64,000 nt of DNA from Candidatus Dormiibacterota bacterium (GCA_049790415.1 JBAQYY010000042.1:5094-69093); one strand, 5' to 3'; shown: positions 9,711 through 46,647, counted from the stretch's first letter. Made by a program: numbers and translations. Notes: generated by a model from the sequence alone, not told the origin.

Positions 9711-9714
<4 letters not shown>
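8833..9714 (-). CDS. pyrK: Dihydroorotate dehydrogenase electron-transfer subunit (FAD/2Fe-2S)
   Basis: Ferredoxin-reductase-like fold (RRPFSFS FAD motif, LVLGGLGAAP NAD motif) with the C-terminal 2Fe-2S cluster motif GCGFGTCLGCA...CC. It sits directly upstream of pyrD. Confidence 0.8.
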
Positions 9715-14168
<4,454 letters not shown>

Positions 14169-15476: not shown

Positions 15477-16051
15477 GTCCGCTCTTCCTCCGAGGGACGC
15501 AGGAGGACAGCGTCGCCTTCATCGCACTCGGCCAGCCGCACCAGGACTCGCTCGTCCTCGGCAGTGGGCTGGTTCCGGCCCACATAGGTAGCCCGCAAGG
15601 GGAGCTCCCGGTGGCCCCGATCCACCACCACCAAGAGCTCGACGGCTCGGGGCCGGGCGATGTCAGCCAGGGCGGCCAGGGCGGCACGTCCGGTCCGGCC
15701 GTGGAAGAGGACATCGTCGACCAGCACCACTACCCGGTCACTGACCGCATCGACAGTTGCCGGAGGCAGGGGGTACTGGGTCGTATCCGCCGTCTTGACC
15801 CGCGGTTGATCGTCGCGGTAGGCGCCGACGTCGAGGGTGACGCCGCGCCACTTACCGCCACCCTGCTCTCCAATCAGATTGATGAGACGAGCGGCTAAGA
15901 AAGCGCCCCTGGTGACGATGCCACAGAGCACCGCTTCGCCATCGGGGTGGTGCTCGCGGAGCTCGCAAGCCAAGCGCCAGAGGGTTCGCTGCAAGTCCTC
16001 GGGGCCGAGCAGGACCGGCATCCCCGGCGTCGTCATTTGGCTGGTACTCAT
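15473..16051 (-). CDS. pyrR: Bifunctional pyr operon regulator / uracil phosphoribosyltransferase PyrR
   Basis: 192 aa with the PRPP-binding motif VVVLVDDVLFHGRTGRAAL and the PyrR N-terminal pattern (LL.PEDLQRTLWRLA.EL.E). Confidence 0.85.
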   Translation of the reverse strand: MSTSQMTTPGMPVLLGPEDLQRTLWRLACELREHHPDGEAVLCGIVTRGAFLAARLINLIGEQGGGKWRGVTLDVGAYRDDQPRVKTADTTQYPLPPATVDAVSDRVVVLVDDVLFHGRTGRAALAALADIARPRAVELLVVVDRGHRELPLRATYVGRNQPTAEDERVLVRLAECDEGDAVLLRPSEEERT

Positions 16052-17055
16052 GCGGCCAGCAGCGTCTTCATCAGGGCCATGCGCACGGAAACGCCGTTGC
16101 GTGCCTGGCGGAAATAGGCAGCCCGCGAGTCCTGGTCGATGGCCGGGTCGATCTCGCCAACCCGGGGCAGGGGATGCATCACGATCGCACCCTGCGGCAG
16201 ACGGTCCATCACCGCCTCGGTGATTCGGAAGTGACGGCGGTTGTCCTCGGACTCCTCCCAGGGCTCACTGAAGCGCTCCACCTGGATCCTGGTCTGGTAG
16301 ACGACGTCGGCGTCGGCGACGGCCTCCAGAAGGTTCTCTGTCTCTCGCACTACGACTCCGTGCTTGAGAAGGTGCTCGACCACCCCTGCGCTCATGCGGA
16401 TGCTGTCGGGGGCGACCAGGGTGACCCGGAGGCCGCTGTAGAGCGCCAGCAGATAGGCCAGCGAGTGCACCGTGCGGCCGTGACTCAGGTCGCCCACCAT
16501 GACCACGTGGAGGTCATCGAGCCTTCCCAGCTCAACCTGAATGGTGAAGAGATCGAGCAGCGCCTGAGTCGGATGCTGACCGGGACCGTCGCCGGCGTTG
16601 ATGATGGGAACCGGGGAGATCTCGGCGGCTCGGGCGGCGGCACCTTCTTCGGAATGGCGGAGAACGATGCAATCCGAGTAACCGGCCACGATCCGCACCG
16701 TGTCCTCCAGCGTCTCTCCCTTGATCGCCGACGAGAAGTCGCGGGCATTCTCGGTGGAAATGACCTGGCCGCCCAGGCGGAGCATGGCCGCCTCAAAGCT
16801 CAGCCGTGTTCTGGTGCTGGGCTCGTAAAAGAGGGTGGCCAGGATGCGGCCCGGCAAGAGCTGGGCACCGCCGCTCTCTCTGAGCTGCTCCATTTCGGTG
16901 CTCAGCTGGAAGAGCTGGCTGAGGCGTTCGCGGTCGAACTGCTGGGCCGCGACGACATGACGAAGTGGAGTCAGCTTGGCGCTCGAGGGCTCGCTTACCG
17001 CCATGAAGTCCTCCTCCAGGAGTCCTTGTGGCCGGCAGGCGGCCGCAGCGGTCAA
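16048..17055 (-). CDS. pyrB: Aspartate carbamoyltransferase catalytic subunit
   Basis: Motifs FYEPSTRTRLSFEAA, HPTQALLD and HPLPR. The sequence is closer to the enterobacterial/archaeal PyrB type, but no pyrI is present. The start is either TTG 17055 (9 nt after AAGGAG) or ATG 17004 (after GGAGGAGGA). Confidence 0.85.
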   Translation of the reverse strand: MTAAAACRPQGLLEEDFMAVSEPSSAKLTPLRHVVAAQQFDRERLSQLFQLSTEMEQLRESGGAQLLPGRILATLFYEPSTRTRLSFEAAMLRLGGQVISTENARDFSSAIKGETLEDTVRIVAGYSDCIVLRHSEEGAAARAAEISPVPIINAGDGPGQHPTQALLDLFTIQVELGRLDDLHVVMVGDLSHGRTVHSLAYLLALYSGLRVTLVAPDSIRMSAGVVEHLLKHGVVVRETENLLEAVADADVVYQTRIQVERFSEPWEESEDNRRHFRITEAVMDRLPQGAIVMHPLPRVGEIDPAIDQDSRAAYFRQARNGVSVRMALMKTLLAA

Positions 17056-17093: not shown

Positions 17094-17460
17094 AAGGTCG
17101 CGTCGCAACCATCATATCGCGGCTTGGCGGGGCAGGGCGCTTCTTCACGACGGAATCGATCCGACACCTCATCCAGGGTGGACAGGTCGCCAGGAACTTT
17201 CACCGTGGAAGCCCACGGCATGTCGAAACGGCGGCCACTCCCGCGAGGCATTTGCGGCTTCGCGTAAAACGTTGCCGATGTAGCAGAGCCTCGTAGATTC
17301 GAAGCGCCCCGGATGCAATCCGCGGGCGTCCTTTGTGAGGGGCCGCAAGTACTTGCCGCAGCCGACTGGCGCGTACCAAAGGCTGCCTGCTTGCCACCAG
17401 GGCGCGGACGCGATCAGAAGACCAGTTGCGCGATTCCAAGGTCAGTGGGATGCTGACGCC

Positions 17461-18474
17461 ATGGAAGTCCGGGATGTCCGAGTTCACGGCGAGCGGGTAA
17501 TCCAGGAGGTAGAGCGAGCAGTTGTCGGCAAGCGTGCCGTTCTGGAGTTGATCCTCAGCGGCATCCTGGCTGATGGGCACGTCCTCTTGGAGGACTATCC
17601 CGGTTTGGCGAAGACCCTCATCGCCCGCTCATTCGCGCAGTCGATGAAGCTCGTCTTTGCCCGGGTTCAGTTCACTCCCGACCTGATGCCCTCCGACATC
17701 ACCGGCTCTTCTATATACAACCAACGGACCAGTGAATTCCAGATGCGGCGGGGACCAATCTTTACCAATCTCCTTTTGGGCGATGAGATCAATCGCTCCC
17801 CTCCGAAAACGCAAGCCGCCTTGCTCGAGGGGATGCAGGAGCGGCAGGTCACAATCGAAGGCCACACCATGGCCTTGCCTCGGCCATTCTTGGTCATGGC
17901 TACGCAGAACCCGATCGAGTACGAAGGCACCTACCCCCTTCCAGAAGCCCAGCTGGATCGTTTTCTGCTGCGTGCCAGCGTCGGGTATCCCGATCCAGCC
18001 GACGAGGAGCGCATGGTGCGCGAGCGCCACCTCCGTCAGCACGACGAGGTGCGGCTCACCCCCGTTCTCGACGGGCCCACCCTGCTCGACTGCCAAGCGG
18101 CCGTAGAGGGAGTACTGGTCACCGACGACCTCTTCCACTACATCGTTCAGCTCGTGGGCGCGACACGGCAGAGCTCACGCGTCTTGGTCGGGGCCAGCCC
18201 GCGGGGGAGCTTGGCGCTGCTGCGTCTTTCCCGTGCTCGCGCCGCTCTGATGGGCCGTGACTTCGTCGTTCCGGACGACGTTCAGGCGGTGGCCGTACCA
18301 GCACTGGCTCACCGACTCACTCTTCGCCCCGAGCTGTGGGCGCAGCGCATCCGAGCTGACGACGTCGTCCTGGAGTGCCTCAAGACCGTTCCTGTGCCAC
18401 CCACCCTGCCCCCAGAGATGATGAGGTCGCTGGCAACAGCAGCCGAGGGCGGAGAGTCCCCGAGGCAGGAATGA
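17461..18474 (+). CDS. MoxR-family AAA+ ATPase
   Basis: GHVLLEDYPGLAKT (Walker A variant), FTNLLLGDEINR (Walker B) and VMATQNPIEYEGTYPLPEAQLDRF (sensor/Arg finger) are the MoxR signature. The start is trimmed to ATG 17461. Confidence 0.85.
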   Translation: MEVRDVRVHGERVIQEVERAVVGKRAVLELILSGILADGHVLLEDYPGLAKTLIARSFAQSMKLVFARVQFTPDLMPSDITGSSIYNQRTSEFQMRRGPIFTNLLLGDEINRSPPKTQAALLEGMQERQVTIEGHTMALPRPFLVMATQNPIEYEGTYPLPEAQLDRFLLRASVGYPDPADEERMVRERHLRQHDEVRLTPVLDGPTLLDCQAAVEGVLVTDDLFHYIVQLVGATRQSSRVLVGASPRGSLALLRLSRARAALMGRDFVVPDDVQAVAVPALAHRLTLRPELWAQRIRADDVVLECLKTVPVPPTLPPEMMRSLATAAEGGESPRQE

Positions 18475-19835: not shown

Positions 19836-20935
19836 TCCCGCAACTGACCGTCGGCGTACTGGCCGTGGCCGTCACCGGTCTCATCGCTGTGCAGATCCTC
19901 AACCTCGGTCCGCTCCTTCCCCAGCTTGCTCTGGTCGGAGGACTGGGCGCCATCGTCGCCGTATTGTTGGCCGTCGGACTGAGGAGACCGCGACTGGTTA
20001 CCGCGGCCGGGGCAGGACTCCTGATGGCGTATGCGCTCACTCTCGTGGACAGGTCGGACTCTTCAGTCGCGGCCACCTCGGCCCCCGTCATTGCCGGAGG
20101 CATCGTCCTCAGCATTCAGCTGGCCTGGTGGGCTACAGAGCTGCGTACAACAGCTCGAGAATCCGCGCTGGACCTAGCCCGTCGGGGAGCACAGCTCGGG
20201 GCCAGCGCAGTCGTCGCGGGACTCATCGCTGAAGTGATCTGGCAGGCCAGCCGGATTCACTTAGGTCAAGGGCTGTCATTTTTGGTCTTCGGTCTGCTGG
20301 CCGCGATAGGACTTGCCGCTCTGTTTCTGGCTGTCTCCTCTCTACGGCGAACACCGAGGCGGGAGCCCCTCATTGCCCGATCAACTATGCAGCCGCGTGC
20401 GATATACCTCCCATCCCACTCCCTATCCCCCCACAAGGGACTGAGCACGCTCATTGTTCCAGCCGATGCTCCGACATCGAGACGCAGGCGCAACGGAGTC
20501 GGGTTACGGTCGATGATTGCGGGGGTTCTGCTCCTGGCGGATGCCGCAGTCATCGCGATAGCCCTTTATTTTTCGGGTATCTCGAAAGGGCCGAATGCCG
20601 CGCCTGCCATCACGCTTGGCCTCACAGTAGCCGGCGCAATAGTCATGGGCTGGCTCGGATTGAGTGTGGAAGCACTCGTACGACCTGTTACCACGTTCGA
20701 GGAACTCTCACCCGCGAATACCCCGCCGCCACCCACTGGCCTGGGGAGCCTCGGGGTGATCAGGTCGATGACTCGGCGCGCTTGGAAAACGGGACGGTGC
20801 GACGCCGAATTCGGCACTTACCTTGCTTCGCTTGATAGCCGCCTGGCTGAGGCACGCAGTCCGGATAAAGCCCCAAAATCATTAGCGGAGGTCGGGGCTC
20901 TGCTCGCAGACTTGGAGCGCGGGACTGATGCCTAA
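19817..20935 (+). CDS. Polytopic membrane protein, function unknown
   Basis: From ATG 19817 (MARPGLIPQLTVGVLAVAVTG...) I count about 8 hydrophobic helices by eye, then a soluble C-terminal tail. The gene overlaps its neighbours on both sides (19 nt and 8 nt), which implies translational coupling within the MoxR operon. Confidence 0.5.
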   Translation: MARPGLIPQLTVGVLAVAVTGLIAVQILNLGPLLPQLALVGGLGAIVAVLLAVGLRRPRLVTAAGAGLLMAYALTLVDRSDSSVAATSAPVIAGGIVLSIQLAWWATELRTTARESALDLARRGAQLGASAVVAGLIAEVIWQASRIHLGQGLSFLVFGLLAAIGLAALFLAVSSLRRTPRREPLIARSTMQPRAIYLPSHSLSPHKGLSTLIVPADAPTSRRRRNGVGLRSMIAGVLLLADAAVIAIALYFSGISKGPNAAPAITLGLTVAGAIVMGWLGLSVEALVRPVTTFEELSPANTPPPPTGLGSLGVIRSMTRRAWKTGRCDAEFGTYLASLDSRLAEARSPDKAPKSLAEVGALLADLERGTDA

Positions 20936-21614
20936 TACACGCCGGTGGACAGTGCGATCGATATTCTCGTTCATCGTGCTGAGCCTGGTTGCGGCTTTTC
21001 TAATTGCCCTTGTCGTGACGATGAGCACCTCGCGGATCGGGGCAATCAGGTTGCCTGAAAGCGGCCTCGGCCGCGCGGCCGTCGCCGGCGGGTACACCGC
21101 GGGTTTGGACCCGAGAACCACGGACTGCCATAGCGTAGGGGTACGATGCCGGCGTGAGGCTGGCGCCGCCGCCCGGCGGCCAGGTACTCCGGTACCATCG
21201 TGGGAGCTCGCGCTTGCCGGCTTGCTAGCTGGTGGCGCGGCCGGCTTCCTCTGGAGGACACGCCGCACACAGCTGAGTGACCCCAGCCAAGTCAGTTCCA
21301 GTCTTGAATCATCGCCCAGGACTCGGCGAACGCCGGGCAACCCGAGGGAGAGGGTGCTGGCGGCCTTCGCCGATGTCGAGGAACGACTTACGCGCGGGGG
21401 GATCACCCGAGAGAAGTGGGAGGCGCCGGAAAGCTACTTGGCGCGGGCGGTACCAGATAACACGCGCGGCGGATCCCCAGTCGGCAAATTGGCCCGACTT
21501 TATGCCTTGGCGCGTTATTCTCGTCATCAGATCGACAGCTCCGCGGCCGCACAGGCCGAGGGGGCAGCAGCGGAGTTGGGCGACCGCTTCGATCCCCCCT
21601 CGGTGGCTCCTTAG
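20928..21614 (+). CDS. DUF4129-like membrane-anchored protein, paralog A
   Basis: N-terminal TM (IFSFIVLSLVAAFLIALVV), a second TM (WELALAGLLAGGAAGFLW), then the DUF4129-type C-terminal region RERVLAAFADVEERL...WEAPESYLARA...LARLYALARYSRHQID. Confidence 0.6.
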   Translation: MPNTRRWTVRSIFSFIVLSLVAAFLIALVVTMSTSRIGAIRLPESGLGRAAVAGGYTAGLDPRTTDCHSVGVRCRREAGAAARRPGTPVPSWELALAGLLAGGAAGFLWRTRRTQLSDPSQVSSSLESSPRTRRTPGNPRERVLAAFADVEERLTRGGITREKWEAPESYLARAVPDNTRGGSPVGKLARLYALARYSRHQIDSSAAAQAEGAAAELGDRFDPPSVAP

Positions 21615-21692
21615 GGTGCGCCCATTTAATGAGGCCGAGGAATCCCAGCATCGACTTCGTGCCTCTGCAGGGGGCCGTTGAGCGTATCCAGG

Positions 21693-22364
21693 ATGAGTAG
21701 TCCTCGCACGCATCTCGGGCGGTCGACGTCATGGCTCATCCTGCTAAGTCTGGTCGCGACTTCTCTAATCGCCCTTGTTGCGATCATGAGTACTTCCCGA
21801 GTCGGGACGATCAAGTTGCCCGAGCATAGACATACCGTCGTCCACATCCGAAAGGGGTTCCCAGGCGACGGCCACCTACCTTGTGACGCGGCCGGTGCCC
21901 AATGCCGTCGCGCTGTCAGTCCCTCCCGGGGCAGGAGCGCTCCGGTGCCGTCGTGGGAACTTGCGCTCGCTGGCTTGCTTACTGCAGGCGCAGTCGGCGT
22001 CCTCTGGAAGACGCGCCGCACGCAGCGGAGTGACGCCCGCCAAGCTGGTTCCAGTCTTGAGTCATCGCCCCAGGCTCGCAGAATGCCGACTAACCCCAGG
22101 GAGATCGTGCTGGCGGCCTTCGCAGATGTCGAGGAAAGCCTCACGAGCCGCGGGATTGCTAGGGAGACGTGGGAGGCGCCGGAAGGCTACCTGAGTAGAG
22201 CCATACCGGACAGCCGACACTCCAGTCGCGCTGGTCCTACGCTTGCGCGCCTGTACGCGCTGGCGCGCTACTCACATCACTCCATCGACACGGCGGCGGC
22301 GACCCAAGCTCTCGCTGCATCGATTGAGTTGTCCTCTAGAGTGGGCACGGACTCTGGACCGTGA
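21693..22364 (+). CDS. DUF4129-like membrane-anchored protein, paralog B
   Basis: Collinear with paralog A when started at ATG 21693 (MSSPRTHLGRSTSWLILLSLVATSLIALV...; WELALAGLLTAGAVGVLW; REIVLAAFADVEESL...WEAPEGYLSRA...LARLYALARYSHHSID). Confidence 0.6.
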   Translation: MSSPRTHLGRSTSWLILLSLVATSLIALVAIMSTSRVGTIKLPEHRHTVVHIRKGFPGDGHLPCDAAGAQCRRAVSPSRGRSAPVPSWELALAGLLTAGAVGVLWKTRRTQRSDARQAGSSLESSPQARRMPTNPREIVLAAFADVEESLTSRGIARETWEAPEGYLSRAIPDSRHSSRAGPTLARLYALARYSHHSIDTAAATQALAASIELSSRVGTDSGP

Positions 22365-24116: not shown

Positions 24117-25376
24117 TCACGAAACGTTTGTTTCCCAGCCAGGCTCCTCAAGCTGGGATCGGATGTCGACGACAGCAGCTCCGAGATGGGGCAGCAGGGT
24201 CCCATCTGGAGCGCAACAGGTCCCCTCGAAGAGGAGGCGGGCCAATTCCCTCCCCGGTCGGGACTCTGACTGGACCACTAGACCAGCCTCGCCTGGGAAG
24301 GGGCCGCTCAGACCCATCTTCCCAGTCGGGCGAAAATGCCCGTCCGGAGTCAGAGTCCCCCGTGCCGACGCCAGAGCTGGGTGCGAGCGCCTTCTGCCCC
24401 GTTGATAGAGGATGAGCTGCGACCAGCGGCACTCCAAGGTTTGGCTGCTGAGCTCGCCAATCCCAAAGCTGGCCAGGTGCTGGTCTAGAAGTCCCGGGCT
24501 CCCGCCGTCACGGGCGGTGAGACTGAAGAGGGGCAGAGAAGCCACCGGCCGGGGGTTGATCTCGATGCACCAGATCGTCCCCTCGGCGCCCACCACTAAA
24601 TCCAAGCCAAAGACGCCCCGGTGGCCCACACCCTGGAGCCAGTGCCCAGCCTGGCGGGCCAGTGCCTGCACAGCGGATGCTTGCGGCACGGGCTGGCCGT
24701 AGTCGTTGCCGCAGGAGCCCAGTGAATGCGGGGTCAGACTCTCGATCCCGGTCAATTGCAGGCTCGCCGGGCCGAACAACAGATTGCCCTCGGTGACAAC
24801 CCCGGTCACGGTGACCGGAACTCCCAAGACGCGCTCGGCGATCCGGCAGGTTCGCCCCGCAAACCGCTGGAGAAGATGGGCGAGTTGATCGGGGGTCTCC
24901 GCCAGATAGGTGTGTTCGCCGGAGAAACCTCGAGCCAGTTGGAAGATCACCGGCAGCCTGAGCTCGCCAGCAGCGGTCAGGAGGTCGGCGCCGGCGACCC
25001 CTGCCCGGGTGGGAGGGATGGGCAGCCCCGCCGCCGGGGCACTGCGACTGAAGTAGCTCTTGTTCTCAATCCGACGGGCGATCAAGGCGGGCGAGTTGGC
25101 CACGATGACACCGACTTCTTGGGCCAGTCGCTCCACTTGAGCCGAGTTCTTCCAGACCACGATGGCGTCCGACCGCTCGCGCAGATCAACCTGAACTGAG
25201 GCATCAGCGAGGAGCGCAGCCGTTGAGGCGGGGGCTGGTACTTGAAACCGGGCCCAGCCAGGCCCCTCTTCTCGGGCCAGCCCGCAATCCTCGGCACAGA
25301 TGGCCTTGAGCCCAGCTGCCAGCACCGGAAGCGGGTCGGGACCGACAAAGGTCACTCCGATCTTGCCGGCCTTCAT
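24117..25376 (-). CDS. ATP-grasp family carboxylate-amine ligase
   Basis: 419 aa. It has a pre-ATP-grasp region, a central IENKSYF...LPVIFQLARGFSGEHTY nucleotide-binding segment and the C-terminal Mg/ATP motif GVFGLDLVVGAEGTIWCIEINPRP. The start forms an ATGA overlap with the PLP-enzyme stop. Confidence 0.7.
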   Translation of the reverse strand: MKAGKIGVTFVGPDPLPVLAAGLKAICAEDCGLAREEGPGWARFQVPAPASTAALLADASVQVDLRERSDAIVVWKNSAQVERLAQEVGVIVANSPALIARRIENKSYFSRSAPAAGLPIPPTRAGVAGADLLTAAGELRLPVIFQLARGFSGEHTYLAETPDQLAHLLQRFAGRTCRIAERVLGVPVTVTGVVTEGNLLFGPASLQLTGIESLTPHSLGSCGNDYGQPVPQASAVQALARQAGHWLQGVGHRGVFGLDLVVGAEGTIWCIEINPRPVASLPLFSLTARDGGSPGLLDQHLASFGIGELSSQTLECRWSQLILYQRGRRRSHPALASARGTLTPDGHFRPTGKMGLSGPFPGEAGLVVQSESRPGRELARLLFEGTCCAPDGTLLPHLGAAVVDIRSQLEEPGWETNVS

Positions 25377-26461
25377 GACGGTCCGGTTTTGCTGAAGCCG
25401 GCCCCTGCCAGGAGTCCATCAAGCTCCTCTTCGGTATTGGCCATCGGGAGTGGAGGATCGCCGGGGTGTTGCCTGGGTTCCTGATCGAGCTGCGACTCGT
25501 CTCCAGTCAGCACCGCGATCCAGCGCCCCTCCGCCACCTGGGTGTCGGCGGCCACCGCTTGCCGCATCGCCGCCAGGGCGGCCAGCCCTTCCCAGGACGT
25601 CCGGACGCCGTGGCGGGCGGCTATCTCTCGAACCTCTTCGGCCTCTTCGGCGCTCACTCGCCAGCCCCGCCCGCCGCTGCGGCGAACCTCCCGTCGGACT
25701 GCGGGCGCCCGCCGCGAGCGGTGGGTGCCGAGCTCCCCTAAGAGCGACTGCTCCCCAGGTTGCGGGGGACTCGAGGGATACCAGGGGCGGGTCAGCTCTC
25801 CACCCGGGGAGCCCTCCACCACGTGCAGCGCCGGGCGCTGCTCCGGGGGCAGCAGCTGCTCCATCCCCTCAGCGATACCCAAGGCACTGGCTCCGCTGCT
25901 GGAGAAAACAAAGACTGCCGCCAGCGGCTCCTGCTCGACCAGCTCAGCCGCTATCCCCCGGTAAGCGTTGGGGGCGAGCAGGTTGGCGGAGCCGCGGAGG
26001 TCGGAGAGGCCCCAGTCGCGGACGCCATGGTGCAGCAGAGCGACCGGACTGTCGCTGAGGACGGTCAGTTGCTGATAGATCTCAAGCCGCTGCAGCTTGA
26101 GCCGAGGCGTCCGTGGTGAGACCAGGCTCAACACCCGGAGGCCACCCAAGGAGGCGTACGCCGCCGCCGCGATGGCGGCGTTGCCTGAAGAGGAGATGAC
26201 CGCCTGACGGCCACCCGAAGCGAGCAGGACTGAGCAGAGCAAGCTCAGAGAACGCGCCTTGTGCGACCCGGTCGGAGAGAGGTCCTCGCGCTTGAGCATC
26301 AGGTTGGGAATCCCGAGCGAGGACCCCAGTTCTCCGGCCGCCTCCAGCGGCGTCATCCCCTCTCCGAGTGAGAGCTGAGATGCCGCCGGTAGACTGACGC
26401 CGAAGAGCCGGGCGTGGATCCACTGTCCCTGGGGGCCGTCATTCCCCTCAGCGCCGGGCAT
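25373..26461 (-). CDS. Fold-type-II PLP-dependent enzyme (PALP family: threonine synthase / cysteine synthase-like)
   Basis: From ATG 26461: LGEGMTPLE...LKREDLSPTGSHKARS (Schiff-base Lys), SSSGNAAIAAAAYA and the SSSGASALG phosphate loop. The 64-codon 5' extension in the ORF track is antisense to the LysW-like ORF and is rejected. Confidence 0.7.
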   Translation of the reverse strand: MPGAEGNDGPQGQWIHARLFGVSLPAASQLSLGEGMTPLEAAGELGSSLGIPNLMLKREDLSPTGSHKARSLSLLCSVLLASGGRQAVISSSGNAAIAAAAYASLGGLRVLSLVSPRTPRLKLQRLEIYQQLTVLSDSPVALLHHGVRDWGLSDLRGSANLLAPNAYRGIAAELVEQEPLAAVFVFSSSGASALGIAEGMEQLLPPEQRPALHVVEGSPGGELTRPWYPSSPPQPGEQSLLGELGTHRSRRAPAVRREVRRSGGRGWRVSAEEAEEVREIAARHGVRTSWEGLAALAAMRQAVAADTQVAEGRWIAVLTGDESQLDQEPRQHPGDPPLPMANTEEELDGLLAGAGFSKTGPS

Positions 26462-26476
26462 TAATGGAGGTCTCCA

Positions 26477-26650
26477 GTGAGCACGATCGGCGCCGTCGCC
26501 AAGAACTGTCCTGACTGCGGCACCGTTCTCGACCTCGCCGACGTGGCGGAGATTGGCGACCTCGTCGACTGCCCCAATTGCGGAGCCACCTTCGAACTGG
26601 TGGGACTCAACCCCCTCACTCTGGCTCCCTTCGAGGATGAGGAGAAGTAG
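26477..26650 (+). CDS. LysW/ArgW-like zinc-ribbon small protein (candidate amino-group carrier protein), 57 aa
   Basis: Absent from the supplied ORF track, which lists nothing shorter than 60 aa. GGAGG lies 6 nt upstream of GTG 26477. Translation: VSTIGAVAKNCPDCGTVLDLADVAEIGDLVDCPNCGATFELVGLNPLTLAPFEDEEK. It has two CxxC knuckles, a GDLVxCxxCGAxxELVGLxPLxL core and an acidic tail, as in the LysW family. Confidence 0.6.
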   Translation: MSTIGAVAKNCPDCGTVLDLADVAEIGDLVDCPNCGATFELVGLNPLTLAPFEDEEK

Positions 26651-28169
26651 CATCCCTTACCGCCCGCCGGAAACCACCCTGGCGGTAGTGGGCGCTGAAG
26701 AAGCCCGGGCAGGCGGGAGAGAGGAGGACCGTGTCTCCCGGCTGAGCCAGCTCGGTTGCCAGGCCGACCGCCTCTTGGAGCGTCCCGACCCGGCTCACTA
26801 GCTCCTCCCGGCCCGTCCTGCTGACCTCCTCAGCCAGTCGATCCGACCCCTTCCCGGGCAGCAGCAGCACCCGCTTGACGAGTCCGCCGACCATTGCTGA
26901 CAGCTCGCCGAAGTCGATGCCCTTGTCCTCTCCGCCAGCGATCAGGATGCAAGGTCGGTTCAGCCCGAGGATGGCCGCCACGGTCGACTGAGGTGTGGTG
27001 CTGGAGAGGTCATCGACGTAGTCGATCCCCCCGTGTTGACGCACCAGCTCGGTGCGATGGCGAAGCGGCCGAAAATTCTCGATCGCCTGGGCCGCCTGGG
27101 CCAGCTGGTCCGGCTCCGGAGGAGCCAGGACGGCCAGCACCGTGAGGGCGGCCCGGACATTGCTCAAGTTGTGCCGACCCAACAAGGGGACACTCGCTGT
27201 GGCCATGACTGGACGGGAGGTTCCTTGCCAGCGCAGTCGGAGCAGGCCGTCCTCCTCATAGGCACCATCCAGACCCGAAAGCTGCTCCTGGCCATGGGCG
27301 AAACGGAGCTGGCGAATCTCTGTCCGGAGATCGCCGCCGGCCAGACTTTGAGCATCGTCGCCGTTGCGGATCGCCACCTCGCAGCCAGGGAGTTCAAAGA
27401 TTCGCCGCTTGGCGGCAACGTATCCGGCCAGGCCCTGGTGCTCGTCGAGGTGATTGGGCGTGATGTTGGTCAAGCAGGCGACCCGGGGGGCACGCTCCAG
27501 CTGGAGTAGCTGGCGGTTGCTTATCTCCAGGATCAGGCAGCCTGTGCCATCGTCGGCGGCCACCTCCAGCAGAGCCTGGCGGTCGTGCCGGTCGTTGCCG
27601 GCCAGCCAGACGGTGGGGTAGAGACCGCTCTGAGGCACCAGCGCCGCTACCAGTGAACTGGTGGTCGACTTGCCGTGGGTTCCGGTGATGCCCACCACCT
27701 CGCCCCGGGCGAGGTCGAGGTAGGCCTGGATCAGTGAATAAAACGGATGACCCTTCTCCTTCAGCTTCTGCAGGGGAGCGTTGGCCGCCGCCAGGAACCA
27801 GGCCTGGGTGGGGATGATCAGGCTCGACTTCTCTATCTCCTTGAGGTATTCGCCCGCCAGATGCAGCGAGCGCAGCCCGGTGAGCAACTCCTCCAGACGC
27901 TGCTGGCGCGCCTTTGGGTCCATCCCGGCGTGGGCCAGGTGGTGGGAGCGGCGCAGGCTCTCCAGGTCCGGCTGCTGGTCGTGGCCGACCAGATTGGTGA
28001 AGCCCGCGGCCAGGAGATAGCGGGCCATCTCACCGCCCTCGACGCTAGCCACCCCCACCAGATCGATCTGGCTCTGGCGAAGTTCGGCCAGCCGGGCGGG
28101 CACCCGAAGTTCGGCGTGACCAGACGGCCAAGGGGAAGTAGCCGCCGCGGCAGGGGCCGGGAACTCCAT
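26616..28169 (-). CDS. MurD-like Mur-ligase family protein (paralog outside the dcw cluster)
   Basis: From ATG 28169: N-terminal Rossmann-like domain, then GITGTHGKSTTSSL (P-loop), LEISNRQL, NITPNHLDEH, LLGRHNLSNVRAAL, RHRTELV...IDYVDDLSSTTP, IAGGEDKGIDF and LLSPACPGF. These are collinear with the MurD motifs. An insertion of about 100 aa precedes the P-loop. Confidence 0.8.
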   Translation of the reverse strand: MEFPAPAAAATSPWPSGHAELRVPARLAELRQSQIDLVGVASVEGGEMARYLLAAGFTNLVGHDQQPDLESLRRSHHLAHAGMDPKARQQRLEELLTGLRSLHLAGEYLKEIEKSSLIIPTQAWFLAAANAPLQKLKEKGHPFYSLIQAYLDLARGEVVGITGTHGKSTTSSLVAALVPQSGLYPTVWLAGNDRHDRQALLEVAADDGTGCLILEISNRQLLQLERAPRVACLTNITPNHLDEHQGLAGYVAAKRRIFELPGCEVAIRNGDDAQSLAGGDLRTEIRQLRFAHGQEQLSGLDGAYEEDGLLRLRWQGTSRPVMATASVPLLGRHNLSNVRAALTVLAVLAPPEPDQLAQAAQAIENFRPLRHRTELVRQHGGIDYVDDLSSTTPQSTVAAILGLNRPCILIAGGEDKGIDFGELSAMVGGLVKRVLLLPGKGSDRLAEEVSRTGREELVSRVGTLQEAVGLATELAQPGDTVLLSPACPGFFSAHYRQGGFRRAVRDATSPHPRREPE

Positions 28170-28179
28170 CGGAGCTAGG

Positions 28180-29085
28180 TTAGCGGGCGGGAGCGATTGC
28201 TCCCGGCACCCGCCGAACGGTGAGCACCTGATAGCGCGCGCGGAACTCATTGAGTGGTTCTCGCCGCACCTCATTGCACTCGCTGCAGGCATGAACCACC
28301 TCGTCATCGGCAAGATAGAGAGCGAGGTGGCTGGTCCGTTTCGGACCGCGGTGCACAGCGCAGATCAGATCTACCTCACGCAGCTCGGCGATCCGGACCC
28401 GCTCCCCTATCTTTCGCTGGGCCCGGCTGTTGCGGGGAAGGAGCACCCCGGCCCTGAGGTAGGCGCGCCAGCTAAGACCGGAGCAGTCGATCCCCTGGTC
28501 CCCGGTGCCGCCGAAGACATAGGGGCGTCCCAGCAGGTCGAGGGCGGCCTCTCGCACCACCTGCGGGTCCCAACCGGAAGCGGGCACGGTGGCCGTCCCG
28601 GTCACTCCCTCGGCGCCAGCTGGTCCCCAGCGGTAGGGCGAACCCGGGCGCACCCAGCCGACCGCATCCCCGGGCGCGCGGACCAAGTACTGACCGTCCC
28701 GGACGGCGAGCAGCCCGGCGGCGGGGTCTCCCGGGAGTAGCTGGGTGGTGAGCTCCTGCTTGTCCGAGGCCTGATCTGGACGGCGCCGCCAGATGTCCAG
28801 CGTTCCCCCTTCGGCATGGAGGGCGACGCGGGTGCGGCGGGTGGCCAACACCAAGAGTCGGCAGGTGGCTCCCGGCCAGAGTTCGGCCACCCGTCGGCGC
28901 AACTCCAGCGCCTGGCCTGGCAGCGCCACGGTGCCCCGGATCCCATCAGTCGTCACCTGGACCTCGATCAAAGCCTCGCCATAGCGAGCCATGGCCTCCC
29001 GGCGAAGGCTTGCAATGGAGTCCTCCAGCGCCAGCGCCTCCCGGCCGGAGTTCAACTTTCCGACGACCCGAAGAGTCGCCGCCAC
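28180..29085 (-). CDS. NlpC/P60 (C40) cysteine peptidase with N-terminal SH3b-like region
   Basis: C-terminal catalytic module GRPYVFGGTG..GIDCSGLSWRAY...SHLALYLADDEVVHA (Cys-His-His). This resembles gamma-D-glutamyl-diamino-acid endopeptidases of the YkfC type. The start is uncertain: GTG 29085 overlaps the upstream gene by 34 nt, and ATG 28992 is an alternative. Confidence 0.75.
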   Translation of the reverse strand: MAATLRVVGKLNSGREALALEDSIASLRREAMARYGEALIEVQVTTDGIRGTVALPGQALELRRRVAELWPGATCRLLVLATRRTRVALHAEGGTLDIWRRRPDQASDKQELTTQLLPGDPAAGLLAVRDGQYLVRAPGDAVGWVRPGSPYRWGPAGAEGVTGTATVPASGWDPQVVREAALDLLGRPYVFGGTGDQGIDCSGLSWRAYLRAGVLLPRNSRAQRKIGERVRIAELREVDLICAVHRGPKRTSHLALYLADDEVVHACSECNEVRREPLNEFRARYQVLTVRRVPGAIAPAR

Positions 29086-29930
29086 CCGGTACGGTGCGTC
29101 TCACCCTTGAGCTGACCTGGATGGAGTTGGAGAGACTGACCGTCGGTGCTGAACAGAACCGGGCTCAAAGGGAAGCTCGCCAACCGGTACAGCCGGCGGA
29201 CCACCTCGGTCATCCTGTCGGTGCTGGCAGCGTCGCCAACGCCAGCCACCACCATGGCCCGGTCGGGGGCCGCCAGAATTGCCCGGCCGTTGCCCAACTC
29301 GGCGAGTTTCTCCAAGAAGGCAGGTACCAGGAGCAGGCTGCTGGAAAAGAGGATGTCGTCGGTGAAGAGCCAGGTTCTCTGCTCTGGTTCTTTGTTCAGG
29401 ACGGCGCTCCAGCGGGTCAAGCGGAGGGCGGTGTTGCGATCGGCGAGCTCCATCAACTGCTGCTCGTCGAGCCCGCCGATTTCTGCCTCGGCCCGGGAGA
29501 CTCCCCGCATGGCGTCGTCGGGCAGCGCCTCCGCGACAAACGCCAGCAAACCTCCAGGAACCTCTCGGGTGGCCAGCTCGGCATAGCGACTGAATCGGCG
29601 AATAGTGCGGCCCGCCCGGACGCACCACACCAAGGCGCCCGGATCCGGAGCCGGCATGGAGGGCTCAGGATGGTCCTCTGCAGCGCTCAGGCGGGGTGCG
29701 GCAGCAGTGACGAAATGAGAGATGCGCTCAGGCATAGACGCCTCGGGCTGGCTCGCTTCCGCGAAGAGCGACTCCAGCGAGAGCGATACCTGGGATCGAT
29801 CCTTGCGGGCCAGGACCCCAAAATCGTTGTCGCGGGCGCTGAATTCCCAACCCCGGTAGCGAGCCCGAAACTGGGTTAGGAGTCGCTCCTGGAACAGTTG
29901 GCGCTCGCTGTCCAGACGGATTGTCGGCAT
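29052..29930 (-). CDS. Hypothetical protein, DUF1444 (YtpQ)-like by weak resemblance
   Basis: 292 aa and soluble. The overall layout and a few blocks (ILAAPDRAMVVAG, SPVLFSTDGQSLQL) recall the YtpQ/DUF1444 family. There is no catalytic motif I can name. Confidence 0.35.
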   Translation of the reverse strand: MPTIRLDSERQLFQERLLTQFRARYRGWEFSARDNDFGVLARKDRSQVSLSLESLFAEASQPEASMPERISHFVTAAAPRLSAAEDHPEPSMPAPDPGALVWCVRAGRTIRRFSRYAELATREVPGGLLAFVAEALPDDAMRGVSRAEAEIGGLDEQQLMELADRNTALRLTRWSAVLNKEPEQRTWLFTDDILFSSSLLLVPAFLEKLAELGNGRAILAAPDRAMVVAGVGDAASTDRMTEVVRRLYRLASFPLSPVLFSTDGQSLQLHPGQLKGETHRTGWRRLFGSSES

Positions 29931-29934
29931 CGGT

Positions 29935-31923
29935 CTATTTTGACCGCGAGCGCGAGGCTACGTAGTCGACTAACACGTAGTCGCCGAGCCGGTCGGGGCT
30001 GACGAAGAAGACGCGACCCCGATTCTGGCGAGTGAGTTGCTGGATGAACTGGACCAGGTACTGGTTGGTCTCGAGCATAAAAGTGTTGATCACAATTCCC
30101 TCCCTGGTGCAGTGACGCACCTCCTGAAGGGTCTTGCGAAATGTCTCGGGCAAGGGCGGGTACATGAAGACGGCATGGGTGCCCTCCATGTGGGCCGTGG
30201 GTTCGCCATCGCTGACGATGATTATCTGGCGATTCCCGGCCCGATGTCGGTGCAGCAGTCGGCGCGCCAGCATCAGTCCGTGCTGCATGTTGGTGCCGTA
30301 GACGTACTCACTGTAGGAGAGTTGGGCCAGCATGGCCGGACTGATTTCCCGGGCGTAGTCGGAAAAACCGACGACGTAGAGGGTATCCCGGGGATACTGG
30401 GTACGGATCAAGGAATTCAGCGCCAGAGCCATTTTCTTGGCCGCGTAGAAGTAGCCTCGCAAGGGCATGCTGCGGCTCATGTCGAGCATCAGCACGGTGT
30501 TGGTCTGCACGCTGCGCTCGGATTCCCGCACCTCGAAGTCGTCGACGTTTAGGCGCAGGGGACGGCTTCCATCGCTGTGCCGGACAGCGTTCATAAGGGT
30601 CTTTTCCACGTCGAGGTTGAAGGGATCCCCGAACTGGTAGGGCTTGCTGTCATCACTGACCTCGGGGCCAGTCCCCAGGCTGCCCTGGGGATGACTGCCG
30701 AAGCCATCGGCGGAGAGGTGCTGGAAGATGTCGGCCAGCGCCTTCTGGCCGATCTTGCGCACTCCCTGCGGAGTCAGCTCCAGCCCGTCGCCATCACGCT
30801 TGAGCTGTCCTTTGGCCTCCAGCTCGCTGACCAGGGCCTGGATCTTGAGCATGTTGGCAGCCGAGTCGGGTCCCAGGCTTTCCGCCATCTGCTCCAGCAA
30901 CTCCGGGGGCACATCGGCGCCGGCGTAAGCCTGCCGGATGCCCCTTTCCAACGAGTCGAGCTGTTGCAGTTCGCCCATCACGTCGAGGGCACCCGGCAGA
31001 TCGAGTTCCTCGCCGCCGAAGAAGGGGAAACGCGAACCGGAAGACGCCTGCGGCGACATCTGGCCGAGCAGCCGGGAGAGTTGAGCCAGCTGTTCTTGGA
31101 GTTCCTGATCGCTGAGGGCGGCCCGCATGATCTCCTGCAGTTGCTGACGCGTCTCCGGTGACGCTGATTCCAGCAGCGAGTTGAGTTCGGCCATCTGTTG
31201 GCGCAGCTGGTCGAGGAAGGACTCCAGATCCTCGGGATGGTCGGGGAAGTAGCTGCCCCACTTCTCCATGAACTCCTGGTAGCGAGGAGGTTCGCCCCGC
31301 TGCTGTCGCTCCAGCATCTGGTTGAGGTCGTGGATCATTTCGCGTAGCTGGCCGATGTCCTGCGCACCCAGGTTCTGGACTGCCTTACCGAGGTCCTGGA
31401 AGTGGCGCTCGACGAGGTTCCGACGGAGCTCGCCCAGAAGCTCCTGGAAGTCCTGACCCGCCTCTTGGTCGAGGAACTCGTACTCCTGGAGCTGGCGGAT
31501 CGCGGAACCCGCCTCGGGAGGCAGCGCATCGAGTTGTTCCAGACGGCTCCGGGTCAGTCTCTCCACTAGGCGCTGGTGATCGCTTCCGGCCGCCTCGCGA
31601 GCGCGCTCCTGCAGGGTGGTGCGCTCCTTTTGGAGAATCCGGTCGAGCCGCTCCTCGATGTCCTTGAAGAGGCCATCCAGGTTGTAGCGCTCGAGCTTCT
31701 CCTGGCGCTGTTCGCGGAGTTGGTCGAGGAGGTCCTCCAAGCCTTGGAGCTGGTTGCCCTGGCTGTCCCTGAAGCCCTGGCTCAGGAGCCGGCGGAGGGC
31801 GGACTCAAAGTCCCAGCCGTGGAAGACGTCCTCTGCCAGGCGCGAGAAGAGTTCGCCCGAGTCAGGAAGGTCACCTTCCTGACTGCCGTCCCAACGGCTG
31901 TAGAGTTCGCGGGCCGCGGCCAT
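29935..31923 (-). CDS. Large vWA-domain protein (COG4867-like)
   Basis: 662 aa. A long Glu/Leu/Gln-rich helical N-terminal part is followed by a C-terminal von Willebrand A domain with a MIDAS-like VLMLDMSRSM and later VVGFSDYA...IIIVSDGEPTA. Confidence 0.7.
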   Translation of the reverse strand: MAAARELYSRWDGSQEGDLPDSGELFSRLAEDVFHGWDFESALRRLLSQGFRDSQGNQLQGLEDLLDQLREQRQEKLERYNLDGLFKDIEERLDRILQKERTTLQERAREAAGSDHQRLVERLTRSRLEQLDALPPEAGSAIRQLQEYEFLDQEAGQDFQELLGELRRNLVERHFQDLGKAVQNLGAQDIGQLREMIHDLNQMLERQQRGEPPRYQEFMEKWGSYFPDHPEDLESFLDQLRQQMAELNSLLESASPETRQQLQEIMRAALSDQELQEQLAQLSRLLGQMSPQASSGSRFPFFGGEELDLPGALDVMGELQQLDSLERGIRQAYAGADVPPELLEQMAESLGPDSAANMLKIQALVSELEAKGQLKRDGDGLELTPQGVRKIGQKALADIFQHLSADGFGSHPQGSLGTGPEVSDDSKPYQFGDPFNLDVEKTLMNAVRHSDGSRPLRLNVDDFEVRESERSVQTNTVLMLDMSRSMPLRGYFYAAKKMALALNSLIRTQYPRDTLYVVGFSDYAREISPAMLAQLSYSEYVYGTNMQHGLMLARRLLHRHRAGNRQIIIVSDGEPTAHMEGTHAVFMYPPLPETFRKTLQEVRHCTREGIVINTFMLETNQYLVQFIQQLTRQNRGRVFFVSPDRLGDYVLVDYVASRSRSK

Positions 31924-31933
31924 TGCCGCTTGC

Positions 31934-33328
31934 CTAGCTTCCGTAGACGGTGCTGCCGTCCACCACCGTCTTGTTCAGGCGCTTGGAGAGGTGCAACCCC
32001 TCCAGAACCAGTTCTAACGCCGCTGCCACCGACCCCGGCTGCTGGGGTTCGTCGAGGTCGCTCAGGATCCGCTTCATCTCGGGGATACCATCGGCCACCT
32101 GGAGGTAACGCTCCAGCGCCACCATCTCGCCGACTTCGATGGTGAGCCCTTCCTCGAAGCGGGCCAGCACCGGTGCGAACTCCTGCACCGCGAAGTGGCG
32201 CCGGAAGACATTGGTGCACGCGCTCCGGAGCAGCTTCTGGAGCAGGGCCTGGTCCTCGCCCTCCTCCCAGGTCTCCAATTCCAGCTTGCCCAGCGTTGAA
32301 GCGGTCAGCGCGCCGAGGTCACTCAGCCGCGGCACCGCCTCGGGCTCGGCCAGGCTGATGGCGCGGCGAACCGCGTTGGCGCAGAGGCTTTCGAAATTGG
32401 CGATCGAGAGCCGGACCGAGACTCCCGAGCGCTGGTTGATCTGGGTGGTGCGCCGAGCCAGCTGGGAGATCTCGGCGACCAGCTCCAACATGTATTGGGG
32501 CACGTGGAGGGGAATGCCTAATCCCGAGAACTGGTCGCGCTCCTGCTGGATGATCTCGGCCTCGGCTTCCGGGGAGCGCGGGTAGTGGGTGCGGATCTGG
32601 GCCCCGAAGCGGTCCTTGAGCGGGGTGATGATCCGGCCCCGGTTGGTGTAGTCCTCGGGGTTGGCAGTGGCCACCACCAACACGTCCAGGGGCAGGCGAA
32701 CCTGGAAGCCGCGGATCTGGACGTCGCGCTCTTCCATGATGTTGAGTAGCCCCACCTGGATCCGCTCGGCCAAATCGGGGAGCTCGTTGATGGCAAAGAT
32801 GCCCCGGTTGACCCGAGGCAGCAGGCCGTAGTGGATGGTCAGCTCGTCGGCCAGATAGCGTCCTTCGGCCACCCGAATCGGATCCACCTCGCCGATCAGG
32901 TCGGCAATGGAGGTGTCGGGAGTGGCCAGTTTTTCACCGAACCGCTCCGCCCGCCCGATCCACGTTATCGGCGTTTGGTCACCCATCTCGCCGACCAGAT
33001 CGCGACCGAGGCGGCTGATCGGCGCGTAGGGATGGTCGTGGACCTCACTGCCACGAATCATTGGAACCTGTTCGTCCAGGAGTTGGGCCATGGCCCGGAT
33101 CAGCCGCGACTTGGCCTGGCCCCGTTCGCCGAGGAACACCATGTCCTGCCCCGCCAGCAGGGCATTCTCGATCTGGGGCAGTACCGTGTCCTGGTATCCG
33201 ACCAGGCCCTGGAAGCGCTCCCGGCCATGGCGCAGTGCCTCGATCAGGTTGTCGCGCAGCTCCTCCCGGACCGAGCGCATCCGGTACTCGCTGCCGCGTA
33301 GCTCACCAAGGGTGCTCGGGAGTGCCAT
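31934..33328 (-). CDS. ChlI/MoxR-type AAA+ ATPase (Mg-chelatase subunit I-like)
   Basis: Walker A FLGERGQAKS, Walker B/sensor GIFAINELPDL...LLNIMEERDVQIRG...VLVVATANPEDYTNRGRIITPLKDRF, and a C-terminal helical lid. It lies 10 nt upstream of the vWA gene. Confidence 0.75.
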   Translation of the reverse strand: MALPSTLGELRGSEYRMRSVREELRDNLIEALRHGRERFQGLVGYQDTVLPQIENALLAGQDMVFLGERGQAKSRLIRAMAQLLDEQVPMIRGSEVHDHPYAPISRLGRDLVGEMGDQTPITWIGRAERFGEKLATPDTSIADLIGEVDPIRVAEGRYLADELTIHYGLLPRVNRGIFAINELPDLAERIQVGLLNIMEERDVQIRGFQVRLPLDVLVVATANPEDYTNRGRIITPLKDRFGAQIRTHYPRSPEAEAEIIQQERDQFSGLGIPLHVPQYMLELVAEISQLARRTTQINQRSGVSVRLSIANFESLCANAVRRAISLAEPEAVPRLSDLGALTASTLGKLELETWEEGEDQALLQKLLRSACTNVFRRHFAVQEFAPVLARFEEGLTIEVGEMVALERYLQVADGIPEMKRILSDLDEPQQPGSVAAALELVLEGLHLSKRLNKTVVDGSTVYGS

Positions 33329-45778: not shown

Positions 45779-45838
45779 GCCAGCCGCGTCGTGGATGACG
45801 TTACAACGGGCAATCTCACCGCGGACCGCTAACCCTGG

Positions 45839-46645: not shown

Positions 46646-46647
46646 GG

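Follow-up and report, generated by a model that had tools for sequence, protein, structure and literature searches.

Known pathways that use LysW-type carrier proteins pair them with RimK-type ligases; they lead to lysine and arginine or, in a few cases, to natural products of Streptomyces. In the LysW/ArgW pathways of Thermus, Sulfolobus and Thermococcus, a zinc-ribbon domain with a short, acidic and flexible tail is accompanied by an ATP-dependent carboxylate-amine ligase and a hydrolase. A comparable combination is found at positions 24117-29085 of a 64,000-nucleotide stretch of DNA from Candidatus Dormiibacterota bacterium (GCA_049790415.1, JBAQYY010000042.1:5094-69093; the window in the following), which was matched to a metagenome-assembled genome (MAG) contig of Candidatus Dormibacterota. 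Here, a LysW-family carrier is encoded together with a MurD-like ligase, an NlpC/P60 (C40) cysteine peptidase, a pyridoxal phosphate (PLP) enzyme of the PALP family and an ATP-grasp ligase. Of about 48 carrier-anchored loci that could be assessed, 40 hold all five genes, with at least six phylum-level labels represented, and the observations support the view that the genes constitute one functional unit, a conserved set whose pathway would depend on a carrier protein. The literature searched on LysW-type and other amino-group carrier proteins, Mur ligases and Dormibacterota peptidoglycan contained no account of this cassette, and the NCBI names of its proteins are generic only. Judged from its sequences, the cassette fails defining features of five known types, namely the LysW pathway, MurD proper, threonine synthase, Mpl and cyanophycin synthetase, and it is classed here as a new form of carrier-protein-mediated amino-acid chemistry.

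The carrier is a protein of 57 amino acids (26477-26650, plus strand). It contains the four-Cys zinc-ribbon globular domain homologous to LysW (PF21344, 2e-12), and its matches in the PDB are LysW structures (3wwl, 1.3e-9; 5k2m, 2.4e-8). Its score of 46.1 bits against TIGR01206 is below the cut-off of 53.2. In contrast to LysW, whose tail ends in -EDWGE, the carrier in the window terminates in PFEDEEK. An earlier reading of the window from sequence alone (the sequence-only reading) had proposed a small zinc-ribbon protein with an acidic tail; the protein is a genuine LysW-family member and the Glu-rich stretch exists, but the last residue is Lys and not an acidic one. A C-terminal Lys is found in the carriers of all cassette loci in place of the C-terminal Glu of LysW, which takes up its cargo at the γ-carboxyl group, and the tail [FY]E[ED]EEK recurs in six lineages that were found without reference to the tail. 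The 105 loci obtained with the DNA pattern described below share the tail by construction; the evidence for its conservation comes from the loci found independently and from a phmmer search with the 57-residue protein. This search gave 325 matches. The best 150 include 90 small proteins, and 29 of these end in -EK, mostly as -EEEK or -EEK after a hydrophobic residue; the proteins with a classical LysW tail (-DWGE) are a group apart. By these sequence comparisons, the C-terminal Lys is a hallmark of the carrier subfamily. No enzyme fused to a LysW-like ribbon was found among the long matches of a representative search, which were only multi-ribbon, RDD or WD40 proteins.

The partners of the carrier also differ from those in the LysW pathway. 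The constant ligase of the cassette is a Mur ligase instead of a RimK/LysX-type ATP-grasp enzyme, and its hydrolase is a C40 cysteine peptidase instead of the M20 enzyme LysK. Kinase, reductase or aminotransferase genes are not present in the cassette, and the partners LysZ, LysY, LysJ and LysK are absent among the conserved neighbours.

Carrier loci were collected with a fixed-spacing DNA pattern that specifies the second CxxCG, a Glu, a Pro and the tail, and which has a chance expectation of 0 in the window. The pattern identified 56 loci in contigs of a one-genome-per-species collection and 49 loci in metagenomes. Six seed loci supplied enzyme profiles, with which the open reading frames (ORFs) in all six frames of the carrier loci were searched. 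Among 108 carrier loci, pooled from two collections without a redundancy check between them, 40 contain all four enzymes, 56 are cut by the edge of the locus or contig and show nothing contradictory, and 12 were flagged as variants, about 8 of which are real. The loci that were reached via homologues of the MurD-like or the ATP-grasp ligase all hold the whole five-gene set, in differing orders. The sequence-only reading had made its case dependent on co-occurrence of the genes in other genomes, and the 40 complete loci from several phyla bear it out on this point. The labels of the pattern-derived loci, which are MAG record titles and in some cases clearly wrong, comprise about 18 Dormibacterota as well as Anaerolineae, Ardenticatenales, Caldilineae, Epilinea, CSSED10-310, Planctomycetota and MAGs titled Deltaproteobacteria, proteobacterium and Rickettsiales. 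No further gene family is common to the cassette lineages, and the other neighbours reflect lineage-specific synteny.

The gene order varies between lineages. In Dormibacterota, the P60 gene is followed by the MurD-like gene, the carrier gene in antisense, and the PALP and ATP-grasp genes, with the same flanks down to 55% identity; this locus lies in a syntenic region of the core genome and not in an island. Caldilineae encode an 855-residue fusion of P60 and MurD-like ligase, followed by carrier, PALP and ATP-grasp. In locus L005, the carrier precedes a fusion of a D-glutamate-cyclase-like domain with P60, then MurD-like ligase, PALP and ATP-grasp. The related contigs L009 and L010 show the order glycoside hydrolase family 3 (GH3), carrier, P60, MurD-like ligase, PALP and ATP-grasp. 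The two types of fusion tie parts of the cassette together; for the D-glutamate-cyclase-like domain (PF14336, 1e-51 to 1e-55), Pfam confirms the fusion to P60 at three loci or more. The GH3 gene is NagZ-like and translationally coupled upstream of the carrier gene in nine loci of one lineage. Locus L117 of Gracilibacteria (GCA_017993975.1) has the order P60, MurD-like ligase, carrier-like ORF in antisense and PALP. Its carrier-like ribbon (L117:4794-5255, minus strand) ends a 153-residue ORF with a long Asp/Glu-rich N-terminal region and has the tail LIEEQK, and the neighbouring MurD-like protein has no Pfam Mur_ligase_C match; the gene calls are uncertain because this lineage uses genetic code 25.

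Among the variants, PALP and ATP-grasp are either both present or both absent. Loci L030 and L056 contain the carrier and the MurD-like ligase next to a glycosyltransferase family 2 gene, L045 and L036 contain carrier, P60 and MurD-like ligase, and L025 contains carrier and P60 alone. In L036, a gene for a 683-residue protein (L036:277-2328, plus strand) stands in place of PALP and ATP-grasp and overlaps the start of P60. Its N-terminal part is an Asp/Glu racemase domain (PF01177, 5.6e-25) in which both Cys residues of the catalytic type are present, and the 443 residues fused to this domain have no Pfam or PDB match. Thus, the gene contents of the variants divide the cassette into two modules, one consisting of carrier, MurD-like ligase and P60 and the other of PALP and ATP-grasp. 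The constant partners of the carrier are the MurD-like ligase and P60, not the ATP-grasp ligase.

Several side observations concern the distribution of the cassette. Two closely related cassettes with the order ATP-grasp, MurD-like ligase, carrier in antisense, PALP and P60 are present on two contigs (L035 and L055) of one MAG (JAEWYL01, Chloroflexota OH_SFB_172); either the cassette is truly duplicated or the bin contains two strains. Cassettes with the Dormibacterota type of organisation and synteny are also represented by the contigs L015 (DATLTJ010000084.1) and L016 (DATKSI010000030.1) and the proteins P0068, P0265 and P0283, which are labelled Candidatus Acidiferrales, Micrarchaeaceae or Micrarchaeia (archaea). 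As the MurD tree places them within Dormibacterota, these MAGs were most likely mis-binned or mislabelled.

In the window, the four enzymes are encoded on the minus strand with tight junctions, as the sequence-only reading had described: the PALP stop and the ATP-grasp start overlap by 4 nucleotides, and P60 and the MurD-like gene are separated by 10 nucleotides. Genes, families and coordinates of that reading are real, whereas two ORF lengths and the size of an insertion in the MurD-like ligase do not hold. The carrier gene runs against the enzyme genes. It shares its last 35 nucleotides with the 3' end of the MurD-like gene, and its start and the PALP start are divergent and 15 nucleotides apart. 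Between the GTG start of the carrier (26477) and the ATG start of PALP (26461), the sequence shows the palindrome GGAGGTCTCC (26466-26475, no strand). It includes the GGAGG that precedes the carrier GTG start codon by 6 nucleotides and that is also found upstream of the PALP start, and it is readable as a putative Shine-Dalgarno sequence on both strands. Across 18 Dormibacterota copies, substitutions in the carrier gene are distributed over codon positions 1, 2 and 3 as 988, 834 and 2913. This third-position bias points to selection on the antisense ORF at the protein level, and GGAGG and bias together indicate that the 57-residue ORF is a real gene. As the carrier gene lies antisense within the enzyme operon, the two would be transcribed through each other's genes. 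A scan of the locus for promoters and terminators gave nothing above chance.

The antisense slot of the carrier recurs in Dormibacterota, in the Chloroflexota MAG with two cassettes, in three MAGs labelled only 'bacterium' (L021, L024 and L039), in L036 and in Gracilibacteria. It always lies between the convergent 3' end of the MurD-like gene and the divergent start of PALP, with GGAGGTCTCC between the two starts. The carrier gene of Anaerolineae is in sense orientation.

The constant ligase of the cassette (26616-28169, minus strand; PF08245, PF02875) has 517 amino acids, and its annotated form (P0001) is 100% identical to an NCBI "Mur ligase family protein". IMG and KO-style annotation name the gene murD. 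Its score against TIGR01087 is 207.9 bits, i.e. 4 bits short of the cut-off of 211.95, and in the PDB it matches MurD (1e-33). The three-domain MurD fold is complete in an AlphaFold2 model with a predicted local distance difference test score (pLDDT) of 90.4, for which Foldseek gave target-normalised template modelling (TM) scores of 0.84-0.85 to substrate-bound Escherichia coli MurD (1uag, 3uag, 4uag), followed by MurC. The sequence-only reading had assigned to the protein an extra insertion of about 100 residues. This resulted from an ORF that was overcalled by 48 codons (565 instead of 517 residues) and from an insert of about 25 residues common to real MurDs. The latter is a helical hairpin in the N-terminal domain (helices 69-79 and 85-98 of the model), to which a three-residue QxWF insert is added. 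Both are also present in an Armatimonadota MurD encoded inside a complete dcw (division and cell wall) cluster and are therefore not special to the cassette.

The MurD-like ligase shares the fold, the machinery for ATP, Mg and the carbamylated Lys, the N-domain features and the binders of the D-Glu α-carboxylate with the dcw-encoded MurDs, including the long type of Armatimonadota. The equivalents of the P-loop Lys, the N-domain Asp, Asn138, His183, the carbamylated Lys198, Thr321 and Lys348 are kept in 38 of 38 family members, and we take Thr321 and Lys348 to be the residues that bind the α-carboxylate of D-Glu. In contrast to dcw MurD, position S318 is changed to Leu or Ile, and the S415/L416 loop, which presumably holds the γ-carboxylate of D-Glu, is shorter by two residues and reads SPAC[PA]x[FY]--[FY] (S415-L416...F422 in E. 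coli). The loop is canonical in the nearest dcw MurDs, i.e. in Armatimonadota and in P0076, which belongs to a MraY-MurI-MurD-FtsW-MurG cluster. The MurD-like ligase further differs from dcw MurD by its position outside dcw, its linkage or fusion to P60, its linkage to the carrier and its score below the TIGR01087 cut-off. As it departs from real MurDs only at the site of the D-Glu side-chain carboxylate, the nucleotide-linked acyl substrate is probably unchanged. The incoming residue would then be a D-Glu-type amino acid with an occupied side chain, most simply an amide to the terminal Lys of the carrier.

The position of the gene away from dcw, already pointed out in the sequence-only reading, is confirmed, since no other Mur ligase or dcw gene is present within the 64-kb window. 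Moreover, the MurD-like gene never adjoins dcw genes in any locus examined. Its best canonical match, P0071, lies within a full dcw cluster, and its relatives belong to Armatimonadota and not to Dormibacterota. In neighbour-joining trees, the family forms one clade together with five extra sequences. Strict monophyly fails with 103 sequences, as the five extras that join the clade include the real dcw MurD P0076. An identity as Mpl was rejected because TIGR01081 gives only 23.8 bits against a cut-off of 388.7.

The P60 protein (28180-29085, minus strand; PF00877, 3e-18) consists of an SH3b domain and an NlpC/P60 (C40) cysteine peptidase domain. It has about 290-301 amino acids, with an ambiguous start at about 29055 to 29085. 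The Cys of the DCSG motif (C201) and His253 are invariant in the family, and His265 almost so. The family profile covers both domains of NpPCP (2evr) and AvPCP (2hbw), and it also matches YkfC (3h41) and dipeptidyl peptidase VI. Neither P60 nor any other cassette protein shows an N-terminal signal peptide in the sequences read by eye, and P60 is predicted to be a cytoplasmic enzyme. In sequence, it resembles the SH3b-P60 endopeptidases that cleave between γ-D-Glu and a diamino acid. The architecture, the catalytic Cys and His residues and the lack of a signal peptide are shared with the YkfC, AvPCP and NpPCP enzymes of murein tripeptide recycling. Different from these, the cassette P60 begins with an additional α/β segment that is conserved, occurs in some lineages as a fusion with the MurD-like ligase or with the D-glutamate-cyclase-like domain, and is encoded beside a carrier gene.

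The PALP enzyme (25373-26461, minus strand; PF00291, 2.9e-37) has 362 amino acids; a length of 426 residues derives from an overcalled ORF. In the PDB, the family profile matches threonine synthase ThrC (6cgq, 3.4e-35), followed by Ser/Thr dehydratases and aspartate racemase (5ybw, 7e-17). The PLP lysine lies in an invariant LKREDxxPxGSHK motif, and the SSSGNA loop is present. The identity as threonine synthase was rejected: TIGR00260 scores 39.6 bits, far below its cut-off of 167.1, and the Arg of the ThrC motif NSxNPxR, which we assume to be its phosphate-binding motif, is aligned with Ala. Thus, the protein is predicted to be a threonine-synthase-like enzyme of fold-type II that is not threonine synthase.

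The ATP-grasp ligase (24117-25376, minus strand) has 419 amino acids and matches PF02655 (3e-05) and PRK06524 (4.7e-19). The Foldseek neighbours of its AlphaFold2 model (pLDDT 93.7) are generic (PurK, PurD and biotin carboxylase, TM 0.6-0.67), and the matches of its profile in the PDB are weak throughout (carbamoyl-phosphate synthase, BesA, PurK and VanA), with the γ-glutamyl ligase BesA as the best sequence match. The Mg/ATP motif E272-x-N274-x-R276 is invariant in the family. Sequence and model indicate a distinct, uncharacterised family. An identity of the LysX/RimK type was rejected, as rimK_fam matches weakly (1.5e-4 over about 100 residues) and the fold is nearest to PurK and biotin carboxylase. 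The sequence-only reading had pointed to the ATP-grasp enzymes that load LysW-type carriers; the cassette enzyme is neither LysX/RimK-like nor the constant partner of the carrier. That reading had also compared the cassette with cyanophycin synthetase CphA1, in which the same two ligase superfamilies are combined. The cassette enzymes are separate proteins, its Mur ligase is far closer to MurD, and the analogy has no support in sequence or fold searches: cyanophycin synthetase was absent from the PDB sequence matches of the MurD-like ligase (E up to 1e-5) and from its Foldseek top 50, and the CphA G domain was not among the top matches of the ATP-grasp ligase in Foldseek or in the profile search against the PDB. 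The part of the interpretation that persists is the single functional unit with a LysW-family carrier, whereas a LysX/RimK-like ATP-grasp ligase as constant partner, an acidic last residue and the likeness to cyanophycin synthetase are not supported.

The cassette probably serves cell-wall chemistry of the D-glutamate type that takes place on a protein handle. A theme of D-glutamate and γ-glutamyl-lysine-type bonds, i.e. of position 2 of the murein peptide, is suggested by the MurD-derived ligase, the γ-D-Glu-type peptidase, the fusion of a cyclase-like domain to P60, the racemase of L036 and the NagZ-like GH3 gene. We read the MurD-like ligase and P60 as responsible for ligation and release, and PALP and the ATP-grasp ligase as responsible for loading and conversion of the cargo. 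That a D-Glu-type residue tethered to the carrier is the species handled by the MurD-like ligase and P60 has a chance somewhat short of even. In its most explicit form, the pathway would start with the ATP-grasp ligase, which would join the γ-carboxyl of L-Glu to the ε-amino group of the terminal Lys of the carrier. The PLP enzyme would then invert the tethered Glu, whose α-amino and α-carboxyl groups would still be free, to D-Glu. The MurD-like ligase would activate uridine diphosphate-N-acetylmuramoyl-L-alanine (UDP-MurNAc-L-Ala) as a normal MurD does and would join it to the α-amine of the tethered D-Glu. Finally, P60 would cut the γ-D-Glu-Lys bond, releasing UDP-MurNAc-L-Ala-D-Glu and freeing the carrier. 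The aspartate racemase among the profile matches of PALP, the γ-glutamyl ligase BesA as best sequence match of the ATP-grasp ligase and the replacement of PALP and ATP-grasp by the Asp/Glu racemase of L036 favour such a pathway. An analogy, in logic only, is the MurD2/MurL route of Xanthomonas, in which L-Glu is added first and then epimerised on the nucleotide precursor; in both cases, the D-Glu of position 2 would arise on a tethered intermediate and not from a pool of free D-Glu. In contrast to that route, a homologue of MurL was not seen, the intermediate would be tethered to a protein, and a PLP enzyme would act as the epimerase. Every step of the four-step route via the terminal Lys is inferred, as are the attachment site, the order and the substrates, and as a whole this exact route is unlikely.

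Several points weigh against it. Known P60 homologues cut γ-D-Glu-Nα bonds and not Nε bonds, and we know of no fold-type II PLP enzyme that epimerises a Glu tethered to a protein. Variants that lack ATP-grasp and PALP show no visible loading enzyme. The lineages labelled Deltaproteobacteria, Planctomycetota and Anaerolineae are expected to carry ordinary murD and murI genes, and the proposed route would therefore be redundant in them. The BesA match of the ATP-grasp ligase spans 41 residues, and by fold the enzyme resembles PurK and biotin carboxylase. Residue positions and roles in the MurD-like ligase were transferred from a single MurD sequence, that of E. coli. In addition, the clade that separates the family from dcw MurDs has a neighbour-joining bootstrap of 36/60 (60%).

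The main rival is the explanation given in the sequence-only reading, which follows the classical logic of amino-group carriers and which we consider somewhat improbable. The MurD-like ligase would activate a carboxylate of the carrier (the α-carboxyl group of Lys57, in the way MurD activates that of L-Ala, or the γ-carboxyl group of a Glu) and attach the α-amine of a D-amino acid to it. The PLP enzyme and the ATP-grasp ligase would make or extend the cargo, and P60 would release a small peptide or an unusual amino acid instead of a peptidoglycan precursor. The LysW homology and the acidic tail of the carrier are in line with this, and Mur ligases normally activate the C-terminal carboxylate of the growing peptide. 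The ligase and hydrolase pair recalls LysX and LysK, a distant homologue of the ATP-grasp ligase is found in a biosynthetic-type cluster of an actinomycete (L008), and the kept Thr321 and Lys348 equivalents suit a free α-amino acid as incoming substrate. However, the UDP-binding N-domain and the Asn138 and His183 equivalents are as in the nearest dcw MurDs, which argues for an unchanged nucleotide-linked acyl substrate. There is also no transporter, regulator or extra tailoring gene common to the lineages, the Dormibacterota locus belongs to the syntenic core genome, and the requirement for a terminal Lys is left unexplained.

Cytoplasmic recycling or editing of murein peptides, the more ordinary alternative of the sequence-only reading, and a cycle of protein modification come after this. 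For recycling, P60 would act like YkfC or AvPCP on L-Ala-γ-D-Glu-diamino acid peptides and the MurD-like ligase would re-ligate salvaged peptides like Mpl, the PLP enzyme and the ATP-grasp ligase would convert the released amino acids, and the carrier would be an accessory or regulatory subunit and not a covalent handle. The P60 architecture fits the cytoplasmic murein-tripeptide endopeptidases, and the NagZ-like GH3 gene in the same operon at nine loci, the D-Glu-cyclase-like domain on P60 and the cassette proteins devoid of a visible signal peptide point in the same direction. This is nonetheless distinctly improbable: Mpl is a relative of MurC and its family profile scores far below cut-off, the GH3 gene is limited to one lineage, and a strictly conserved LysW-type carrier with an invariant terminal Lys beside the ligase would have no explanation.

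Reversible modification of the C-terminus of the small protein, as a signal or tag, is very unlikely. The ligases would add residues to the tail and P60 would remove them, maybe after first trimming the Lys, similar to RimK and S6, to tubulin tyrosination or glutamylation, or to Pup. Fusion of ligase and hydrolase in one polypeptide, as in glutathionylspermidine synthetase/amidase, speaks for such a cycle, and so do the Glu-rich tail, which is like the substrates of RimK and TTLL enzymes, and the minimal variants that consist of the carrier with only P60 or only the ligase. Yet no conserved target or effector gene is found nearby, the PLP enzyme would be without a role, and the MurD-specific residues for a nucleotide-sugar substrate are retained. 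Finally, an ordinary housekeeping murD beside unrelated genes by chance, for which the murD name in IMG and KO-style annotation, the narrow miss of TIGR01087 and the stable synteny in Dormibacterota could be cited, is scarcely credible, since it is already contradicted by the cross-phylum linkage of a five-gene set with rearranged orders and fusions, and the family has its own diagnostic loop change.

The cassette adds new partners to the LysW fold, namely a Mur ligase and a C40 peptidase, together with a differently built tail. This carrier link spans several mostly uncultured phyla, including Dormibacterota from soil and Gracilibacteria of the candidate phyla radiation. If the carrier serves as a covalent handle, carrier-protein chemistry would extend to the Mur-ligase superfamily, and the metabolism of D-glutamate and murein peptides would seem to have a branch that has escaped notice. 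If the exact four-step route were true, it would represent a third way of making position 2 of the stem peptide in peptidoglycan, independent of free D-Glu, with a LysW-type carrier working by an amine instead of a carboxylate and a Mur ligase using a protein-bound substrate. Cell-wall reconstructions for the cassette phyla may count the wrong gene because KO-style pipelines name the cassette gene murD.

The neighbours of the cassette in the window are ordinary, with DnaJ downstream, a trio of genes directly upstream of P60 and a pyrimidine operon and a protocatechuate cluster farther away. A relation to known anti-phage defence systems was rejected, as PADLOC models gave 0 matches for the 8 proteins examined. 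The upstream trio (29052-33328, minus strand) encodes a MoxR-like AAA ATPase of 464 residues, a VWA protein of 662 residues and a 292-residue protein that has no Pfam match and whose ORF overlaps the called P60 start. The VWA protein of another Dormibacterota locus matches Rv0959/Mb0984-type domains. The trio is syntenic throughout Dormibacterota and is probably a separate unit because it is absent in other phyla. About 4 kb downstream of one Dormibacterota cassette, a Peptidase_S51 gene of the cyanophycinase/dipeptidase E family is present (L118:16766-17431, minus strand), which is probably unrelated because it was not seen in other lineages.

The pyrimidine operon comprises pyrD (7868-8914), pyrC (14169-15476), a PyrR-like phosphoribosyltransferase gene (15473-16051) and pyrB (16048-17055), and it includes a carA-carB fusion (9711-14168, minus strand) that encodes the small chain of carbamoyl-phosphate synthase with its glutamine amidotransferase domain and the large chain in one protein of 1485 residues. 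Two tandem paralogues of 228 residues (20928-21614 and 21678-22364, both plus strand) are 56% identical and have one predicted N-terminal membrane helix each. They are located downstream of a MoxR AAA_3 ATPase (17335-18474) and a 442-residue membrane protein with no Pfam match, and the duplicated long ORFs opposite to them are probably shadows of the high G+C content. The protocatechuate/β-ketoadipate-type cluster (41952-47490, minus strand) consists of a fusion of α/β-hydrolase and carboxymuconolactone decarboxylase, a class-II lyase, the β subunit of protocatechuate dioxygenase and two CoA-transferase subunits.

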